Origin: Octopus vulgaris
Taxonomy: Eukaryota
DNA: 64,000 bases
Assembly: GCA_951406725.2 (NCBI GenBank)
Contig: OX597822.1
Coordinates: 105,772,001 to 105,836,000 of the forward strand
Direction of reading: 5' to 3'
Shown here piece after piece: positions 14,833-63,910 of this stretch. Both the position numbers and the translations under genes were made by a program. The notes beneath the pieces are model-generated. The model did not search any database. It was not told where the DNA came from and saw nothing but the letters and a program-made list of their open reading frames with translations. Position 1 is the first letter of the stretch, and each line of letters opens with the position of its first letter.

Positions 14833-15250
14833 GTAGGTAGGTAGGTAGGTAGGTAGGTAGGTAGGTAGGTAAATATATTGACATACAGAATAACAAGCAG
14901 GCAGACAGATGGATGGATGAATAGATAGACAGAAAGTAAGATATCCTTCTCTGTTTGTGTGTATGTGTGTGCGTGCGCAGATGTGCGGGTGCGTTCGAGT
15001 GTGTGAACATACCCGTAAGTACGCTGACAGCCTGACAGCCCAAATGGACACACTCCTGGGCGTCTGTTTACTATCGTTGATGTGTCTTGAGAGGAAATAT
15101 GCTGCCTTATTATTCATCTCTATTACACAAGCGACTATCATCTACTTCATTCAGGCTAAATCATGTAAAAGATACGTTGAGGCAGCTCATCTCGGTCTCA
15201 CACGTCTTTGTGTTATATGTATGTGTCTATGTGTGTGTGTGTGTGTGCGT

Positions 15251-15637
15251 GTGGAGGCGCAACGGCCCAGTGGTTAGGGCAGCGGACTCGTGGTCGTAGG
15301 ATCGCGGTTTCGATTCCCAGACCGGGCGTTGTGAGTGTTTATTGAGCGAAAACACCTAAACCTCCACGAGGCTTCGGCAGGGGATGGTGGTGATCCCTGC
15401 TGTACTCTTTCGCCACAACTTTCTCTCACTCTTACTTCCTGTTTCTGTTGTACCTGTATTTCAAAGGGTCGGCCTTTTCACTCTCTGTGTCACGCTGAAT
15501 ATCCCCCGAGAACTACGTTAAGGGTACACGTGTCTGTGGAGTGCTCAGCCACTTACACGTTAATTTCACGAGCAGGCTGTTCCGTTGATCGGATCAACCG
15601 GAATACTCGTCGTCGTAACCGACGGAGTGCTTCCATC
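15251..15637 (+). mobile_element. tRNA-derived SINE: head E + tail T1
   Basis: A-box ggcccagtgg, B-box ggtttcgattccc. Near-identical to 17850-18238. Confidence 0.9.
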
Positions 15638-17090: not shown

Positions 17091-17849
17091 TTTATAATAA
17101 TAATAATACAAATAACACGAAACGAAATATTAATTTCTTTTAGACATGGATCTATTAATGTTGAACAAAGATGAATATAAAAAAAAAATTCTGTGTATTG
17201 AAAATATTCGAATGTCTAATAGTCTGATCGTAAACTTCACGCTACTTTAAACTTTAATGGATGGTGGTTTTTGTTTGTGGTACTTTCATATCTCTCTGTT
17301 AATTCATTCAGGACATTGAAACATTGAACAATTTAAAGTTTTCTGCTGATATAATTATTTCATTGATATTTTGTTATGTTTAATGAGAACAAACTACCAG
17401 ATACTAAAACGCACGCAATTAATGAGAAATAGAAGATTTTTTTATATTGCACGTATGAGAATATATTTACAAAGTGTACGGGTCTTAAAGAAATAAATAC
17501 TATTTCTTTAGTAAAACAATAATATTCGTTGCTGTTGTTTTAGCTGTTGTGATTCCTCTCTTTATTATATTTTTTATGAAGAACTTTTTTTGTAATTTCC
17601 CAACGCTGCCTTCAATTAATTTATCTCTGTTGAAATAATGCCAGATACGAGGGTTTAGATTTAGTAATTCTTCAGAAAAGAACATGTCAATCAATATCTA
17701 CTAATTAAATGCAAACATTCTCTGTGGTACGTTTCTGTCAAAATTCCCGGTAAACTTTCTCCTTCATTCAGAAACGTAACAGAGTTCGAAACCAAGCGTC
17801 TGCATTGTTTGCTTGTCATCTCGTAATCAGCGGTATACTTCAATAATTG

Positions 17850-18238
17850 TGTGGAGGCGCAATGGCCCAGTGGTTAGGGCAGCAGACTCGCGGTCATAGG
17901 ATCGCGGTTTCGATTCCCAGACCGGGCGTTGTGAGTGTTTATTGAGCGAAAACACCTAAAAGCTCCACGACGCTCCGACAGGGGATAGTGGTGATCCCTG
18001 CTGTACTCTTTCACCACAACTTTCTCTCACTCTTACTTCCTGTTTTTGTTGTACCTGTATTTCAAGGGGCCGACCTTGTCACTCTCTGTGTCACGCTGAA
18101 TATCCCCGAGAACTACGTTAAGGGTGCACGTGTCTGTGGAGTGCTCAGCCACTTACACGTTAATTTCACGAGCAGGCTGTTCCGTTGATTCGGATCAACC
18201 GGAACCCTCATCGTCGTAACCGACGGAGTGCTTCCATC
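17850..18238 (+). mobile_element. tRNA-derived SINE: head E + tail T1, with 14-bp TSD
   Basis: TSD tacttcaataattg at 17836-17849 and 18239-18252. A and B boxes present. Confidence 0.92.
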
Positions 18239-25661: not shown

Positions 25662-26599
25662 TTTTAAGCGATTATCTCCCCTACACCGGAAAAAATCACT
25701 CACTACCTCCCCTTATTTAGAAATCTCCTGGAAATAAAAACAACGATAATTCCATGCAATATAAACATAACGTCACAAGAAATTTGAAAAGCTACACGCG
25801 AAACCGGTAATTTCTTTAAAAATTTTTTAAATTATGTCATTTTAAGGAAAGGGAAAAAATTTTTCCAATATTCTCCAGACATTTTGACACAAATATATAT
25901 ATTTTTTAACATTTAAGGCTTCTGTCGTTTTTTCACACTTTACTATTTTCTTATATATTCACCCACGTGCTTTACCAAACAAACTTTCTTATATATATTT
26001 ATAGACATTATATAGACATTATATAGACATACGCATTTAGACATTGAAGTGTGAGATGCACCCCGAATAATTAAGATAAATTTTATGACTACACTTTTTA
26101 TAAAGAGGAAATCACTCAGCGAGACAGACAGCTAGATAGATATATACACAATTGGATAAATAGACGGACAGATAGATAGCCTAATCAACTGATTGGTAGG
26201 CAGAAAGCAAGGTGGAAGACAGATATATATATATATATATATATATCCAATTGTGTATATATCTATCTAGCTGTCTGTCTCGCTGAGCGATTTCCTCTAT
26301 ATTAAAAGTGTAGTCATAAAAATTGAGTTAATAATTCGGGGTGTAGCACACACTTCAATGTCTAAATGCCTATGTCTATATAATGTCTATATATATATTT
26401 GACTAAACTCTTCAAAGTGGTGCCCCAGCATGGGCTGCAGTTCTATGCCTGAGGCACTCAAGCAAAATATGACCATAGCCACATGACTGAAACAAATAAA
26501 AGAATAAATGAATCTATGTTGAGGCCCACACATTCTCTTATAGATAGGTGTCTAGAAAAAGCAGTGTATTATATCTATATGAGCTTATAGCAATACCGA

Positions 26600-28400: not shown

Positions 28401-28803
28401 TTTTACTTGTTTCAGTTATGCTGTGGCACCGATTTGAAGTGTTTAGTTAAACAAATAGATCCTAGCAATTATTTCTTTTTATAAAACTGGTATTTTTATT
28501 ACCACTTCCCTTTCGCCGAACTATAAGATAAAGGGACAAAATATTTAGCGGTATGTTGTCCGTCTTCACATTCTGATTTCACATTTTATCACATCTTACC
28601 CCTTTCGGAGTCGATGAAGTAAAGCGTCAGTCAAGTATTATATCGATAGCTTCGATTAGGTTCCCCAATTCAAAATTGGTAGTCTTGATATATATATATA
28701 TATATAATTTCAATAACTGAGGGTAAAATTAATTAATTATTAATCAATTTCACCAAGTATTCAGTATGTAAAGGGACCATTTAAGGCGAATTCAAAATAT
28801 TAC

Positions 28804-29177
28804 ATTATATAAAAAGGGCTTAGTAAAATAAATTACTTTGCCACATACTGAACTCATTAGAAATAGCAGCTAAAAATTTTTTTTAAACTGTTTCTAATAC
28901 TTAAAGAAAATCTCTCTCATATAGTGTTTGCTCAAACTAACTCACGAAGGTATGGAGGTAAAGACATTAAAAAATCACATTAAAAAATCACAAATGCAAA
29001 GGTTTGCATTTGTGATTTTTTAATGTCTTTACCCCCATACCTTCGTGAGTTAGTTTGAGCAAACACTATATGAGAGAGATTTTCTTTAAGTATTAGAAAT
29101 AGTTTAAAAAAATTTTTTAGCTGCTATTTCTAATGAGTTCAGTATGTGGCAAAGTAATTTATTTTACTAAGCCCTTT

Positions 29178-29185
<8 letters not shown>
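28804..29185. repeat. Near-perfect ~380-bp palindrome between (TA)n tracts
   Basis: Arms of about 190 bp centred on aaatgcaaa-gg-tttgcattt (29001-29002). Confidence 0.92.
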
Positions 29186-29262
<77 letters not shown>

Positions 29263-29569: not shown

Positions 29570-30042
29570 TTCTTCAAGTAGTGAGTTCTTGTTGGCTGAG
29601 TTGTATCAAGTTTTGTTCAAGTAGTGAGTTCTTGTTGGCTGAGTTGTATCAAGTTTTCTTCAAGTAGTGAGTTCTTGTTGGGTGAGTTGTATCCAATTAT
29701 GGGTGGCTTATCTGGTATTCTTTGAAGGAATCTATCCAGACTCCGTTTAAAGTTGATGGGATCCTTTTCCTCTTTGATCTCCCTCGGGACAATGTTAAAT
29801 AGGGCAGGGCCTGTTGAGGAAAAGAAATTATGTTGCAGTGTACATGTATGTTGTGATCTTGAATTGGGCAGGGGACGTATGGCCCGTGGTCTTGGATGAA
29901 CCTTGAAGCTAATGTTAAGGTCGTTTGGGCAAAGTTGGCGGTATATTCTCCACATCGTACAAATGATGTACCGCTCACGGCGACGCTGGAGGGAGTAAAG
30001 TTTCAAGGCTTTAAGGCGATCCCAATAATCGAGAGCAGCCAT
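29570..30042 (-). mobile_element. CR1-like LINE 3' fragment with tandemly repeated 3' end
   Basis: ORF 29617-30042 reads LDYWDRLKALKLYSLQRRRERY...GPALFNIVP...FKRSLDRFLQRIPDKP...NSLL. Confidence 0.85.
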
Positions 30043-30295
30043 TAGAAAATTTATTGATAAAAGGTCTTACAGCTGTTTCCAAGATATTTATTAATTATAT
30101 CCCTTCATCGAAGACGGTGTGAGAGGATGGTTAAGTAATAATTAATTAAGATAGAATACAAAATATAGAGTGAGGTGGAGGAAAGAAAATAGATGTGAGA
30201 TATGCAAGGATATTAAATTTGTAGATCCATTTTTAAGGCAGAATGGTATATATGTAAGATTCCAATACCTTATGAGTAAAATGCAACAGTATTTA
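30043..30295 (-). mobile_element. Probable Penelope-like terminal fragment with hammerhead-like motif
   Basis: Minus 30064-30115 reads gtct-TCGATGA-A-gggatat..atatcttg-GAAA-cagctg-TA-agac. Confidence 0.5.
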
Positions 30296-41810: not shown

Positions 41811-42752
41811 AAGATGCATGGCTCAGTGGTTAGAGCGTCGAGCTTACGATCGTGAGGTTGTGAGATCGAATCCCGGACCGGGGTGCGTGTTGTGTTCTTG
41901 AGCAAGGCACTTTATTTCACGTTGCTCCAGTTAACTCAGCTGTAGAAATAAGTTGCGACGTCACAGGTGCCAAGCTGTATCGACCCCTTTGTCTTTCCCT
42001 TGGATAACACTGGTGGTGTGGAGAGGGGAGGCCGGTATACATGGGCGGCGAGCTGGCAGAGACGTTAGCACCTCGGGCGAAAGGCTTAGCGGTATTTCGC
42101 CTGTCGTTACGTTCTGAGTTCAAATTCCGCCGAGGTCGACTTTGCCTTTCATCCTTTCAAAGGCGGCGAGCTGGCAGAGACGTTAGCACCTCGGGCGAAA
42201 AGCTTAGCGGTATTTCGCCCTGAAAAGGTGGTGAGCTGGCAGAATCGTTAGCACGCTGGACGAAATGCACAGCCATATTTTGTCTGCCGCTACGTTCTGG
42301 GTTCAAATTCCGCCGAGGTCGACTTTGCCTTTCATCCTTTCGGGGTCGATTAAATAAGTACCATTTACGCACTGGGGTCGATATAATCGACTTAATCCGT
42401 TTGTCTATCCTTGTTTGTCCTCTCTGTGTTTAGCCCCTTGTGGGTAGTAAAGAAATAGGTATTTCGCCTGTCGTTACGTTCTGAGTTCAAATCCGCCGAG
42501 GTCGACTTTGCCTTTCATCCTTTCGGGGTAGATAAATTAAGTACCAGTTACGCACTGGGGTCGACGTAATCGACTTAATACCTATGTCTGTCTTTGTTTG
42601 TCCCCTCTGTGTTTGGCTCCTTGTGGGTAATAAAGAAATAGGTATACATGGGCGACTGCTGGTCTTCCATAAACAACCTTGCCCGGACTTGTGCTTGGGA
42701 GGATAACTTTCTAGGTGCAATCCCACGGTCTGTGTCATGACCGAAGGGGCTC
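41811..42752 (+). mobile_element. SINE C interrupted by nested SINE B copies (42045-42640)
   Basis: C halves at 41811-42044 and 42640-42752, with ggtatacatgggcg duplicated on both sides of the B block. Confidence 0.88.
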
Positions 42753-48107: not shown

Positions 48108-48301
48108 TATATATAAAGTTGTGGCGAAAGAGTAGAGCAGGGTTCGCCGCCACCCCCTGCCGGAAACTCATGAAGCTTTAGGTGTTTTTTTCGCTCAATA
48201 AACACTCACAACGCCCGGTCTGGGATGGAAAGCGCGATCCTACGACCACGAGTCCGCTGCCCTAACTACTGGGCCATTGCACCTCCACATATATGTTTAT
48301 A

Positions 48302-48367
<66 letters not shown>

Positions 48368-48413
48368 CATACATACATATATATACATACATACATATAT
48401 ATAAACATATATG

Positions 48414-48720
48414 TGGAGGTGCAATGGCCCAGTGGTTAGGGCAGCGGACTCGTGGTCGTAGGATCGCGCTTTCCATCCCAGACCGGGCGTTGTGAGTGTT
48501 TATTGAGCGAAAAAAACACCTAAAGCTTCATGAGTTTCCGGCAGGGGGTGGCGGCGAACCCTGCTCTACTCTTTCGCCACAACTTTCTCTCATTCTGTCT
48601 TCTGTTGGCCTGCTCGCTTAGCCAGCGGGGTGGCGTCATTTGAGGGCTAAAAACAATGCGAAGCGCATTGTGACCAGCGATGTGCAGCAGCATCTGATGG
48701 CCTGGTCGGCCACGGTGATA
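48414..48720 (+). mobile_element. SINE: head E + tail T2, with inverted partial duplicate at 48115-48290
   Basis: Head matches 17850 and tail matches 12143-12260. Confidence 0.9.
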
Positions 48721-49832: not shown

Positions 49833-50405
49833 AAGGATATCAGTCGATTATATCGACCCACGTACGCAACTGGTACTTACTTTCTCTTCTTTCTCTCTTT
49901 CTCACTCTTTTACATGTATACATAAATCCATCCATACATACATACAATGCATATATCTATCAGGTCATCCCACAAGGATATCAGACGATTATATCGACCC
50001 ACGTGCGCGACTGGTATTTATTTTCTTTCTTTCTCTCTTTCTCACTCTTTTACATGTATACATAAATCCCTCCATACATACATACAATGCATAAATCTAT
50101 CAGGTCATCCCACAAGGATATCAGACGATTATATCGACCCACGTGCGCGACTGGTACTTACTTTCTCTTCTTTCTCTCTTTCTCACTCTTTTACATGTAT
50201 ACATAAATCCATCCATACATACATACAATGCATATATCTATCAGGTCATCCCACAAGGATATCAGACGATTATATCGACCCACGTACGCAACTGGTACTT
50301 ATTTTCTCTTCTTTCTTTCTCTCTTTCTCACTCTTTTACATGTATACATAAATCCATCCATCCATCCATACATACAATGCATATATCTATCAGGTCATCC
50401 CACAA
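49833..50405. repeat. Tandem repeat, ~140-141-bp unit, about 4 copies
   Basis: ggatatcagacgattatatcgacccacgt recurs at about 49835, 49976, 50116 and 50257. Confidence 0.92.
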
Positions 50406-54319: not shown

Positions 54320-55108
54320 GCACACAAACACACAGACACACAGAAACTCAAATACACAAACACACAGACACACAGACACACAGACACACAGACACTCAAA
54401 TACACAAACACACAGACACACAGACACTCAAATACACAGACACACAGACACTCAAATACACAAACACACAGACACACAGACACTCAAATACACAGACACA
54501 CAGACACTCAAATACACAAACACACAGACACACAGACACTCAAATACACAGACACACAGACACTCAAATACACAGACACACAGACACTCAAATACACAGA
54601 CAAACAGACACTCAAATACACAAACACACAGACACACAGACACTCAAATACACAGACACACAGACACACAGACACTCAAATACACAGACACACAGACACT
54701 CAAATACACAAACACACAGACACACAGACACTCAAATACACAAACACACAGACACTCAAATACACAAACACACTGACACACAGACACTCAAATACACAGA
54801 CACACACACTCAAATACACAAACACACAGACACACATACACTCAAATACACAGACACACAGACACTCAAATCCACAGACACACAGACACTCAAATACACA
54901 GACACACAGACACTCAAATGCACAAACACACAGACACACAGACACTCAAATACACAAACACACAGACACTCAAATACACAAACACACAGACACACAGACA
55001 CTCAAATACACAGACACACAGGCACTCAAATACACAAACACACAGACACTCAAATACACAAACACACAGACACACAGACACTCAAATGCACAAACACACA
55101 GACACACA
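54320..55108. repeat. Compound minisatellite of CACAGACA / CACTCAAATA modules
   Basis: Direct reading. It generates the spurious 330-aa [17 protein letters not shown]. Confidence 0.95.
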
Positions 55109-55931
55109 GTTTTGTCACTTTCCTCTGCAACCCCTCCCCCGTTTCCCGGTCGCACGACGAAAGAGAACTGCATCAGGCTCTTACTATTAGTGGCCGAGAT
55201 TTCTGCTGGTTTATCAACCGTGTCTTATTCCTGAATATAGATAAATACTGCAATGTATTTGAACTTGAAACCTACATTTGAAAACTAAGAGATTTACCCC
55301 TAATGCCAGTACACTTATCGATTATTTAAATGCTTTTTTCAACGAAAATAATAAGTGAGCTAAAGTCAGGGTTGACACTTTTGATTAGAAATTCATCAAG
55401 CACCGTATTAACAACTTTCATTTCGCATTTTCCTCTGTGTGATTCTTAATCTATCATAAAAATTTTATTCCATATTATTCTTAATTATTCACCTCACATA
55501 TGTTCAACCTTTCTTGGCATAGATGTTTTTACTTTCATTAAGGACACTTTATATCCCCCGACTCTCTCGCTTCGAGACCTCTCGTTTTGTCCTTTGTATA
55601 ATCTTCTGCAAAAGCGTGGTTTATTATAGATGCAGTTCCGATGTTCTTTATTATTTCTGGATTGATGTAACTCTAATGAAGAACCGGCAAAGTGTGGTGT
55701 TAATATTTAATGCCATCTGATGCAATATCTACTGCGGGTTCTCTAAATGTATTCACCCAATCTCTTAGAGAAACCCAATGGAATTTAGCTTGACATCTAC
55801 TTTCTATTTTGTAATAATCATGAGTTAAGCATTTGTCACACAAGAACGTATTTTCTGAAACTCCTTTTATCAGAATACGTGACTTATGACCCACACACTA
55901 CCACAGTTTGCTTTTGTCTGATGTTGTACAT

Positions 55932-56288
55932 AGAGACATGGTGGGGACGCTGGCAACGGGTAGTGTCAGAGCTATGCCGTCGGGAACTTCGGTTCCTGGT
56001 AGGGCCACCAAAGGTAGATTGGTCTGACACCGAGTGATATTAGGGCCACAACCCGGCAGACGGGGCTCTGGTGAAAATCCTCGGAGTGTCTGCTTCGGCA
56101 ACCTGCGGCTCCTCGGTCATTATGTCCCGGCGTCTGCGGACAATCTTCGGCAAACAGGATGTCTCCAAATGCGGGATTGTTGGGCACCGCTTCTGAAATC
56201 CACATATTCCCACGAAACTTCTTCCATGAGTAGAAGAAGCCGACTCAACCCTCCCAGGGTGAATGTCGTCACAAGTACAAGTAAGTAA
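55932..56288 (+). mobile_element. Short non-autonomous RTE-like retroelement with (AAGT)n tail
   Basis: The 5' part agagctatgccgtcggg..cctggtagggccacc resembles RTE-clade 5' UTRs (from memory). The 3' end is caagtaagtaa, and gtacat is duplicated at 55926-55931 and 56289-56294. Confidence 0.65.
56043..56160 (+). ncRNA. Predicted HDV-like self-cleaving ribozyme (slightly degenerate)
   Basis: P1 gggccac/atgtccc, P2 cctg/cagg, P3 ggc/gtc, L3 tcctcg, P1.1 cc/gg, P4 gtc..gac and J4/2 ggCaaa occur in the correct nested order. Confidence 0.6.
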
Positions 56289-58659
56289 GTACATTTTAGC
56301 ACTTGAGGGATCTATATGCTACGTATACACCTGTGGCAAACAGTTTTCGATCTGTACACGTCGTGACTCATTCTTCTTTCATTTTCGACGTTTCAGCAAC
56401 TTGCACATGGCCCTAGTGTTATAAGAATAAGATGTGACGTCTAAGTATTTTACCCAAGTTGTGGGTTTCAAGGAATTTTTTGCAGATAAGATTTAGAAAT
56501 ATTCCTTGAAGACATTTTCCATAATTTGTGACAAATGTGAACCCAGCGCCATATGTTCAATATATTGGCAAATATCATTATCAATTTGGAAATTAATTTT
56601 CATACGTAGAATTTTAACATCTCCATGACATTAACATTTGGTAATTTCATGAAGACTTTAGTAATTTTCTAGTCTGGCTTTGACAACCGATATTACATCG
56701 CCTGCTAGAACCATTGTAAATATGGACACAGTATCAATATGTATTGTAGATAGAAATATTAAGAACATTTTATTATAAGAAAATATAAGCTTCACAACCT
56801 ACAGTGTAGAGGTCTGCGCTCGATTGAGCAGTGAAACACAATCGCAATATGGCTATTGAAATATTAATATTGATATTTTGCATCGTATGCTACGCAGAAG
56901 ACTTTTCATTGTCTCCAAGACACAATAGTATCAGTTGTTAAAGAGCCTAAGTATTAATTAACAGATTTACTTCATTTATTCGAAGAAGAAAGGCGGTCAA
57001 AAACAATTACTCTCTGGCAAAGGGTCACTTTCGAATTAATAGCAATATCCCTGAGGTCTTTTTCACGAAACACCACAAAATAAATACTCAAATCTATAAT
57101 TATTTTGGAACGATACAGCTTGTTTGTATCGCATTTGATTTTTAACTTTTAAATATTCTCTTCTTTAGAAGCTATCATGTGTACGAGAATCATAAATAGC
57201 ATTTCAATTGCCCAAAGTAATTTTCTATATTTACAAAGAATTCCCAAACGATTCTTTCATTCCATCATTGTACTGGAGCAGTATTGCTTTGAAGGATTTT
57301 CACCAGGTGTATCGAACCCAGTAATTACCCTACGGAACTCATCGAAATTCCACTTACAAGGCATTAGACAATGCAATACATGCTATATCCATTCAAGCCG
57401 CCTCGTAGAAAGATCGAATACCGAACTACCTTTCAGTGTAGTGAACTTCTTAACTTGGCCACTATATCTGCGCTTATAAATGATTTTTCTTTTTCGTTGC
57501 TTGCTGTAATTTGAACTTGGCTCTCATTGAAACATTCATCTGGTCTTAATATCAGTATAGTGGTATAAACTATTCATAGACCAAGTTACTGTAAATTAAT
57601 TATGTAATAGGTTTTCACGTTAGAAATGAAAGTAAGTGAACTGTGGTTTCAGTGTAAAACGTAAGATATGTCAGAGGCAATACTGGAAAATATTTAGATA
57701 TTAGATAGAAAAATAATTCGATAAGCTATTTACTCAAATGTAAATTGTGTTTAAAATGCGAGACAATCTATGAAAACCCGTTGGATGCAACAAACGTCCG
57801 AATTGCCCTAACTGTACTGTTTCAATGAATTAGTAACATTTAGAACTATATAGAATAAATGAGAAATTCCATCAACTACTCTCATGTTATGAAATAGATC
57901 ATCTTAAAGCTAATATGAGCTGTATGTATTTTACTTGAAAATAAGGAAACAATTGTTTAAGGCTGCTAGTCATTGCATGATTATGAATCTATGGATATGG
58001 CAAATGATCGTTAATTTTTTCACGAATGATAAGACAAAAAATAGCTGTAGATTATAAGAAAGATTGCAAAATGCAAACTTAGGATGCTCTTGGTCATAAC
58101 GTTTATACCCTACACACTAACCTAACTGATATTAAACTTTCCAAAATAATTCCTGAGATATGACGGAGCAACAATACTGTGATTGCACTGTAAGACAAAT
58201 TCCACATGACAAACACACATTGGACGCTAATAAATTTAACGTAGATAACATGAAATCATATTAGAACTCGAAGTAGAAACGTGTGAGATATCAAACAAAA
58301 TATAAGTTGTGGTCGCTGCTAAACTCTCGGCAAACCCTCACCTAGCGGATATGTGATGAAAGATATTTCAGCCGTGACAAACGTGATTATTACGCACAAA
58401 ATATATTGTTTAAATAACATACAAGTAGCGTGGAAATAGCGAACAAGTAAGCAGCGGAACGGGGACAAAACAAACGAACCAACTTAAAATAAAGCCAACA
58501 CTATTAAAAAATAGATAATCTGTATCCATCATTAAATAGACAGCAATACAACCAATATCCGTCGAGTCGGAATATTTAATGAATATCTCTGCATTGAATG
58601 CGAGATCGATATGAAATGGAAGTTTTGAATACGTTAGAAACAGTGACTTCTCAAAGGTT

Positions 58660-59383: not shown

Positions 59384-59744
59384 GGATGGGATGGAAGCAC
59401 TCCGTCGGTTCCGACGACGAGTGTTCCGATCAACGGAACAGCCTGCTCGTGAAATTAACAGACACGTGGTACCCTTAACGTAGTTCTCGGGGATATTCAG
59501 CGTGACACAGAGAGTGACAAGGCCGGCCCTTTGAAATACAGGTACAACAGAAACAGGAAGTAAGAGTGAGAGAAAGTTGTGGTGAAAGAGTACAGCAGGG
59601 ATCACCACCATCCCTGCCGGAGCCTCGTGGAGCTTTTAGGTGTTTTCGCTCAATAAACACTCACAACGCCCGGTCTGGGAATCGAAACCGCGATCCTACG
59701 ACCGCGAGTCTGCTACCCTAACCACTGGGCCATTGCGCCTCTAC
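59384..59744 (-). mobile_element. SINE: head E + tail T1, with 14-bp TSD
   Basis: TSD taaaattaaaacat on both sides. Reverse complement of 17850-18238. Confidence 0.92.
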
Positions 59745-59759
59745 TAAAATTAAAACATA

Positions 59760-63141: not shown

Positions 63142-63420
63142 GGAGGCGCGTGGCTTAGTGGTTAGGGTGTCAGCATCATGATCGTAAGATTGTGGTTTCG
63201 ATTCCTGAACACACCAAGCTTTTATTATGATGTATAATTTTCATATCTTATCAAATTTGTGTTCTTGAGCAAAACACTTCATTTCACGTTGCTCCAGTCC
63301 ACTCCGCTGGCAAAAATGAGTAACGCTGCGATAGACTGGCGTCCCGTCCAGCTGGGGAACCCATACATTGAAACCGCGAAACCGGGCCCATGAGCCTGGC
63401 TAGGCATTAAAAGGGCGCGT
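63142..63420 (+). mobile_element. SINE: head C + tail T3, with a 52-bp foreign insert
   Basis: Matches 51533-51782 except at 63207-63258. Confidence 0.88.
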
Positions 63421-63464
63421 TTTTGAATTAATTTTTGTTGTAACCTTTCTTCTTTGGTAAATAA

Positions 63465-63910
63465 GAATTATCTTGTAGGGGTGGGTCCTGGCATCCTCGT
63501 TTAGCAGTCGATACAACGATATTCGGCTTATTTTTGCTGCGACAACCAGTTTCCTGACGGAACGACGTGGATTTCGCTGTAACTGATCTCTGGCACGTTT
63601 TCGGCCACGTCTCGGTCGATCAGCGCTGGAACCAGTCACCTGCAAATTCTTGACAATTTTCCAGACTGTTGTTCGGTTAATTTTATGCTTTTTTGCTATA
63701 GCCATATTACCTTCACCTCCTTTGAGGAGGGTTATCAGTGTATTTCGGTCTATAGCCATTGGCTAATTTTTAAATCTGAATTCATTTAGTCTGAAACAAT
63801 AAGAGAACACACCAAGCTTTTATTATGATGTATAATTTTCATATCTTATCAAATTTATTGAAATTTATTAAAACCCGAAACATTGGTTGCCTTAATTTCG
63901 AGACACCCTG
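63465..63910 (-). mobile_element. Tc1/mariner transposon 5' end with truncated transposase (HTH domain)
   Basis: TIR cagggtgtctcgaaatta at 63910. ORF 63400-63759 reads IAKKHKINRTTVWKIVK...DRPRRGRKR...RNPRRSVRKL, the paired-like HTH with GRPR-type linker. No DDD/E domain. Confidence 0.85.

Follow-up and report, generated by a model that had tools for sequence, protein, structure and literature searches.

The GC-rich island at positions 55932-56288 of the window (the whole 64-kb stretch of DNA analysed, 64,000 nucleotides) is probably one truncated copy, lacking its 5' end and likely dead, of a non-autonomous element that is present at high copy number and likely arose by internal deletion of an RTE-clade retrotransposon. 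The family would carry a predicted HDV-like ribozyme at its 5' end, the first strands of which are missing from this copy. A first-pass annotation had called the island a short non-autonomous RTE-like element, and this class call is supported by RTE-type 5' homology, by the target-site duplication and by the tail. The HDV-like ribozyme that the same annotation placed in the element survives in part: the family likely carries one, but not as the internal fold then proposed.

Results

Boundaries of the element and a 7-base filler at its 5' junction

The features to which the text refers are as follows (all + strand).

55926-55931 (+): left target-site duplication GTACAT, from the sequence
55932-55938 (+): 7-base 5'-junction filler, not family sequence; other copies differ before 55939
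55939-55952 (+): downstream half of the core predicted for the family ribozyme, from loose ends, pairing by eye and RTE-type 5' homology: last L3 base 55939, P3' 55940-55942, P1' 55943-55950, P1.1' 55951-55952, with partners in the ~30 missing bases
55953-56055 (+): branched P4 domain with an extra hairpin at 56034-56049, homologous to the RTE-type 5' UTR core
56043-56160 (+): first-proposed internal HDV-like fold, in this copy only and not in the family majority
56056-56071 (+): register A J4/2 and P2': G56056, candidate catalytic C56057, A-G-A, GGGG 56062-56065, TGG 56069-56071
56146-56161 (+): register B J4/2 and P2': candidate catalytic C56151, A-A-A, GGATG 56157-56161
56226-56233 (+): probable internal-deletion junction, from longer forms in contigs and reading frames by eye
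56234-56278 (+): short 3' UTR with a predicted stem-loop at 56241-56268, which is weak (z -1.38; 19 of 200 shuffles as good)
56279-56290 (+): (AAGT)3 tail; the 3' ends of copies fall within 56283-56291 and have differing flanks
56289-56294 (+): right target-site duplication GTACAT

The island is 357 bases long and 54% GC, within a surrounding window of 29-42% GC, and its earlier description as a GC-rich 357-bp island with a 6-bp GTACAT duplication and an (AAGT)n tail is confirmed in the sequence; the final GT of the tail is common to the (AAGT)3 array and the right GTACAT repeat. The element's 5' end does not lie at 55932, where it had been placed: the copy begins at ~55939 and is preceded by the 7-base filler. 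Together with the flanking T on each side (55931-55939), the filler is the reverse complement of family-majority positions 56159-56167, a match with a probability by chance, calculated by hand, of 0.3% for nine letters and 4% for seven. Because of this complementarity, the filler likely arose at insertion when the end of the cDNA folded back on itself and was extended by copying, with joining through one-base microhomologies. The left junction of the insertion (55850-55968) is identical in contigs from three sequencing runs (X2, X3 and X4), and the insertion is therefore common to three organisms. No empty-site joint is listed among the contigs of the four runs studied; contigs reveal presence only, and the missing empty site therefore says nothing firm about fixation.

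Searches within the window gave no second copy and no coding capacity. With blastn, the element matches only itself; no ORF of at least 120 aa overlaps it; and RTE-type ORFs have no match in the window by tblastn. An Rfam search over 55000-57500 returned nothing better than E 4, and a small-RNA head (tRNA, 5S or 7SL) gave no tRNA or Rfam match, with 30 letters of the missing 5' part visible. Folding of the whole element, as present in the window, is no better than that of shuffles (z -0.07 and 0.03).

A high-copy family with a consistent majority sequence

The family was characterised with contigs of four public sequencing runs (X2, X3, X4 and X9), one per organism; part of the stretch is present in 20 of 24 listed public runs, and RNA-labelled runs contain 0.06-0.25 of its words. 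Matching contigs number 2977 (X2), 130 (X3), 1488 (X4) and 1424 (X9), and summed depth, which is not a copy number, reaches ~50,000-885,000 at its highest in the three large runs, the flanks having 5-62. This depth points to thousands of genomic copies. A single-copy sequence would have counted against the first-pass reading; the element is high-copy in the genome, as judged from the contigs of the four runs, and single in the window.

The window copy differs from the family majority at 14 of 345 bases, with the same majority letter in all four runs at each; at a fifteenth position, 56093, it differs from the majority in three runs. Nine of the 14 differences (55939-56283) are transversions, six of them C>A or G>T, and other copies vary in a CpG-type manner.

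The family is likely unannotated. Literature searches listed no description of this family or of an octopus retrotransposon ribozyme; a consensus may stand in repeat libraries or in further supplementary files of PMC9115989. Motifs of the element have no match in eight supplementary files of PMC9115989 or in the single supplementary file of PMC13282606.

A predicted HDV-like ribozyme at the 5' end of the family

The best-supported 5' loose end listed (the point at which contigs depart from the window copy) lies before 55939 in all four runs, in 44, 6, 32 and 34 contigs, and the 30 letters visible beyond it are nearly the same across runs (agreement 0.76-0.92). This copy is therefore 5'-truncated by ~30 bases. 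Because no contig among the four runs spans the whole element, and the exact 5' end is not visible, the 5' strands of the family were read from the 30-letter loose-end consensuses.

Inspection by eye indicates that the ~30 absent bases hold an 8-base strand able to pair with 55943-55950, a C-rich P2 strand, and a P3 strand that makes two pairs and a U-U mismatch. The predicted family P1 has eight of eight pairs and opens with G in three of four runs, in agreement with the G-Y criterion; the predicted 7-base L3 carries U20, C21, A22, C24 and G25; and the predicted P1.1 has two of two pairs, L3 C21-A22 with TG 55951-55952. P1, P1.1 and L3 bases U20, C24 and G25 are intact, again by eye, in the loose ends of three of four runs. 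The P1 G-Y, P1.1 and L3 criteria and the CRRA descriptor used below were taken from PMC6326823. Downstream of this core, all four majority changes in 55957-56055 restore or improve a pair, and the folding z of the P4 domain is -2.92 for the majority versus -1.81 for the window copy. The results point to a likely HDV-like double pseudoknot at the 5' end of the family, formed by the missing ~30 bases and 55939-56071. This copy cannot form the family ribozyme.

Two further loose ends, before 55962 in X9 and before 55955 in X2 (agreement 0.6 and 0.73), keep L3 T-C-A, GGT, a 7-base P1', TG and CGGG, with the letters between TG and CGGG changed. They look like sister families that would share the P4 core and differ in P1', L3 and J1.1/4.

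Homologous folds head endonuclease/reverse-transcriptase elements

A motif from 55969-56011, scanned through 6 of 64 parts of a metagenome collection, gave 99 loci (L001-L099), from which we estimate a total of ~1,400 motif loci in the whole collection. Alignment of the 99 loci to the element with blastn gave 61 pieces, none extending beyond 56070, and 55939-56029 is homologous to the 5' ends of endonuclease/RT elements. Seven ORFs from six loci were scanned: RVT_1 is above cut-off in four loci, below it in one and absent from one, and an AP endonuclease domain is present in two of the six. In one locus (L068) a single 1005-aa EN-RT frame lies ~150 bases downstream of the fold; among the 120 matches listed for it, 19 are named craniofacial development protein 2, a name that we take to mark RTE/BovB relatives. 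The ESM Atlas added only EN-RT clusters.

The fold itself is found under our own descriptor in 49 of the 84 loci with full context, 21 of them with at most one mismatch in P1-P3. In an alignment of 30 loci, chosen by the author from the 99 (22 that passed the fold descriptor and 8 for diversity), 89.4% of the cells of the double pseudoknot are paired and 28 of 46 pairs show changes on both sides, a covariation inflated by kinship and row choice, with the search-motif columns invariant by construction. These two-sided changes include five of the seven P1 pairs, all eight of P2 and the lone P1.1 pair (G-C in 26 loci, A-U in 2). None of 500 shuffles reached pairing as high, and slid controls gave 30-50%. 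A model built from the 30 loci, with this element excluded (R1), has one match in the 64-kb window, at 55905-56061 (44.5 bits, E 2.7e-9; the next is at 12 bits), and none at the first-proposed internal fold; it recovers three of three held-out homologues at >100 bits. No Rfam ribozyme family was found in the eight homologous loci tested. As far as sequence comparison goes, many EN-RT elements appear to begin with an HDV-like fold that covaries and has a conserved, branched P4.

The homologues have a P1' of seven bases in 49 loci and eight in 7 (60 parsed, of 84), a P1 whose first pair is C-G or U-G in 18 of the 21 best folds, a P1.1 of one pair, and a J4/2 that reads C-N-A-A-R in 71 of the 80 parsed (of 84). 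One locus, L024:175-602, has the 5' fold and ~190 bases of 5' sequence, followed by what resembles the end of an ORF and by a short tail of AGT type, and looks like another internally deleted RTE-type element.

Two candidate catalytic strands

Two strands could supply the catalytic C, and both fit the CRRA descriptor. In register A, P4 is closed by CGGG/CCCG (55957-55960 with 56052-56055), and GGGG pairs with the missing CCCC to give a P2 duplex of -10.3 kcal/mol, versus -6.8 kcal/mol in register B; we take register A to resemble the HDV genomic GCAA/G-C motif. By calculation, register A can fold ahead of the hairpin 56056-56093, with a cost of 3.3 versus a gain of 10.3 kcal/mol at 56075. Register A also has a G where all 30 aligned homologues have A, only four contiguous P2 pairs, and a candidate C56057 that the hairpin 56056-56093 sequesters once the RNA extends past 56095 (unpaired 0.00-0.04 in a calculation that omits the missing 5' strands). 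Total energies are -88.3 kcal/mol for register B and -85.9 for register A up to 56170, and -121.0 and -122.9, respectively, up to 56283; as values of a two-strand approximation without the pseudoknot, the A and B totals lie within 2.5 kcal/mol and are inseparable. On balance we lean modestly towards C56057, register A, as the predicted catalytic C.

A less likely arrangement keeps the same element and 5' cut and places the catalytic strand downstream, with C56151 and P2' at 56157-56161, such that 55953-56148 would form one ~195-base P4 with five or six arms, the first-proposed hairpins among them. Its C-A-A-A-C fits the C-N-A-A-R of the homologues better than the C-A-G-A-C of register A; the base of its P4 needs G56147, which is the majority letter in four of four runs; C56151 is unpaired at 0.57-0.83; and most of the free minimum-energy structure is kept, with totals near those of register A. 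Against it stand the weaker P2 noted above, a 2x2 loop of unpaired bases that separates P2 from P3, and the sister loose ends, which alter the bases opening this P4 but keep CGGG, one of them also keeping the register A CCCC; and such a P4 is present in none of the 30 homologues. The first-pass designation of C56151 as the catalytic equivalent thus persists as a second candidate base, with partners that differ from those proposed.

It is likewise unlikely, though a reading to be weighed, that the family ribozyme is a relic that spread without self-cleavage, its strict-position C being 56061 and the A's of J4/2 having been lost. This reading arises because C56061 has no A after it: the homologues read CAGA-C-N-A-A, and here GGGG follows CAGA-C. 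A short P2, and a strong hairpin at 56056-56093 that buries both Cs, point the same way. Yet the predicted P1, P1.1 and L3 bases U20, C24 and G25 are intact by eye in three of four runs (eight of eight and two of two pairs), a 5' end common to many copies fits processing, and R2 ribozymes, in the excerpted text of PMC3774820, tolerate P2 and P3 mismatches.

A bolder reading, to which we give rather little credence, is that the active site has moved out of the RTE register and closer to that of genomic HDV (G1, a two-pair P1.1 and GCAA/G-C at the base of P4). A single P1/P3 core would then serve either of two catalytic strands, C56057 during transcription and C56151 later, behind the ~195-base multi-armed P4, which would make this a naturally occurring HDV-like ribozyme of two registers in thousands of copies.

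The first-proposed internal fold is a property of this copy

The internal fold proposed at 56043-56160 consists of strands that are mostly where they had been placed: P2 CCTG/CAGG, P3, GG 56129-56130, C56151 and the hairpin 56056-56093 stand at their positions. Its P1 does not hold. As a 7-bp helix it leaves three unpaired bases between P3' and P1', and if drawn as one unbroken 10-bp helix, it is mismatched at three of ten positions in the window and at two of ten in the majority. Under a strict HDV descriptor the window copy yields a single fold, which uses the proposed P2, P3, P1.1 and C56151 with a P1 that starts at 55933 rather than at 56043, and which is matched by 19 of 1000 dinucleotide shuffles; a looser descriptor that admits the first-proposed P1 is matched by 36 of 1000. 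The family majority fails both; it passes a relaxed descriptor, but so do 224 of 1000 shuffles. Folding of 56043-56160 has z +0.77, with 161 of 200 shuffles as good, and that of the majority, z -0.54, is still at chance.

The first-pass annotation had proposed to check whether a consensus restores P1 and whether 5' ends pile up at 56043. Majority 56119, G, restores the terminal, tenth P1 pair, but majority 56122, C, is still unpaired and two P1 mismatches remain, and no pile-up at 56043 is present among the loose ends listed. In all four runs, majority 56104, G, breaks the P2 of the internal fold (G-A), and majority 56129, T, breaks one of its P1.1 pairs (C-U). T56104 accounts for 0.8%, 0, 0.1% and 0 of summed depth in X2, X3, X4 and X9, and G56129 for 0.2%, one contig, 0.1% and 0. 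The fold-making letters T56104 and G56129 are at single-locus depth. At 56112, within the L3 of the internal fold, T makes up 35% of depth in X3. Because the majority breaks these pairs and fails the strict and looser descriptors, the internal ribozyme is a property of this copy and not a family feature.

An internal family ribozyme with its cut before 56043, whether the sole ribozyme or a degenerate second one, is accordingly given very little weight: the L3 TCCTCG and C-A-A-A look canonical, and the majority's tenth pair and its passing of the relaxed descriptor speak for it, but the broken P2 and P1.1 pairs, the two retained P1 mismatches, the rate of shuffles passing that descriptor, the lack of listed ends at 56043, the variable 56112, and the membership of 56043-56052 in the conserved P4 domain all speak against it. 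Least credible of all is the chance re-creation of an active ribozyme in this single copy, with a cut before 55933, the filler pairing with 56119-56128 (9 of 10) and two private letters completing P2 and P1.1: this is the sole strict-descriptor match in the window copy, equalled by the 19 of 1000 shuffles, but it has an A-C mismatch at P1 position 2, a 10-bp P1, a 6-base L3 and competing hairpins, and an X3 contig with other private letters of this copy lacks T56104, and X9 lacks both T56104 and G56129, such that there is no sign of conservation.

Two ideas of our own were also dropped: a family P1 from 55933, since the filler (55932-55938) is not in the family, its reverse complementarity to 56159-56167 explaining the misleading P1 start; and a pistol or twister interpretation of the repeated AGGGCCAC motif, for which, in a comparison by eye with consensus motifs, partner strands are missing.

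A probable internal deletion between a putative start codon and a stop codon

At the probable deletion junction, which loose ends place at 56228-56230, ATG 56226-56228 is joined over a shared GA to GAG TAG 56228-56233. Longer forms continue behind 56229 in six contigs of X4 and stand in front of 56230-56232 in 20 and 16 contigs of X9 and two of X3; two contigs carry 36 and 39 extra bases at the 56228-56232 junction. By eye, ATG 56226 continues in frame in the first longer form, and the second ends in GAG TAG. ATG 56226-56228 is thus likely the start of the parent ORF, and GAG TAG 56228-56233 likely its last codon and stop. From these frames it follows that the common form would comprise the 5' UTR and start, then the stop, 3' UTR and tail; it would be a bipartite non-autonomous RTE-type element.

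The 3' part has no blastn match in the 99 homologous loci, and the autonomous parent was not retrieved from the homologous loci or from the genome-contig or viral-contig collections. Family contigs number 0 in the genome-contig collection; the viral-contig collection gave 0 for the degenerate motif and 1 for a 17-mer (L100), unmatched by R1. The likely membership in the RTE clade rests on 5' homology, architecture, the EN-RT frame and protein names.

Other features of the window

The window is AT-rich, animal-type DNA with many microsatellites and short repeats, and its SINE-like repeats resemble, we presume, those of octopus. At 48115-48586 two parts of a tRNA-like repeat stand head to head and form a near-perfect inverted repeat of 470 bases (97%); the tRNA-like repeat is also present at 15249-15637, 17844-18238 and 59389-59752; other palindromes lie at 28797-29193 and 26009-26393. 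Tandem arrays at 49833-50405 (141-base unit, four copies) and 42276-42645 (183-base unit, two copies) overlap dispersed short repeats. ORF remnants on the minus strand comprise one at 29617-30066 that we assume to resemble a CR1/L2-type LINE end, with no Pfam match, and one at 63400-63762 that presumably resembles the start of a Tc1/mariner transposase.

Discussion

According to the scheme that we propose, full-length copies would be read through from host transcripts; the ribozyme, with an 8-bp P1 starting from G, a 2-bp P3 with a pyrimidine mismatch, a 7-nt L3, a 2-bp P1.1 and a branched P4, would cut the RNA free at the start of the element; the 3' stem-loop and tail of this RNA would be bound by the protein of the parent element; and target-primed reverse transcription would insert it, leaving the duplication and (AAGT)n. 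In the insertion in the window, the cDNA would have stopped ~30 bases short, folded back, added the 7-base filler and joined the target, and the copy would since have diverged at 14 of its 345 bases, with two of these changes creating the first-proposed internal fold by chance.

Bipartite non-autonomous RTE elements are known, among them RTESINE1/2, WALLSI3, MAR4_MD, RTE-N2_Lch and Bov-A (Kojima 2018; excerpts of PMC5786205). Compared with those named in the excerpts, the octopus family is separate, and the copy in the window is 5'-truncated. HDV-like ribozymes at RTE 5' ends were described by Ruminski et al. 2011, as cited in portions of PMC5786205, PMC6765202 and PMC3774820. Like these and L001-L099, the predicted octopus fold stands at the start of the element, has a homologous branched P4 core, and follows the order P1-P2-P3-L3-P3'-P1'-P1.1'-P4-J4/2-P2'. 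Unlike L001-L099, whose P1 is mostly 7 bp and opens with C-G or U-G, the octopus family has a predicted 8-bp P1 opening with G-C; it has two P1.1 pairs to the homologues' one, a mismatch in P3, a further hairpin in P4, and a J4/2 reading C-A-G-A where the homologues read C-N-A-A. For comparison, R2 ribozymes have a P1 of 6-7 bp, and an active one with a P3 mismatch is described (part of PMC3774820).

Ribozymes of Drosophila R2 SIDEs have been shown to cleave (Eickbush and Eickbush 2012; in part, PMC3414825). As far as these partial sources go, the octopus family would resemble R2 SIDEs and trypanosome NARTc/RIME as a probable internally deleted non-LTR element that keeps a predicted 5' HDV-like ribozyme and the 3' end. 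It differs from R2 SIDEs in that it is dispersed, of very high copy and not confined to rDNA, would have an AP-endonuclease-type parent, and has a ribozyme that is predicted. RTE 5' ends are used in gene-writing systems (PMC13708176, in excerpt).

The first-pass annotation was puzzled by a cut ~110 nt inside the 5' end. That oddity disappears, since the family bears its conserved ribozyme-like fold at a 5' end which is absent here; a ribozyme 110 nt inside the element is the effect of reading one mutated, truncated copy. A likely unannotated high-copy RTE-derived family with a predicted active site unlike that of its homologues would be an easy test case for register shifts in retrotransposon ribozymes, and the covarying RTE-type fold, in an estimated ~1,400 metagenome stretches, could improve the annotation of RTE 5' ends.
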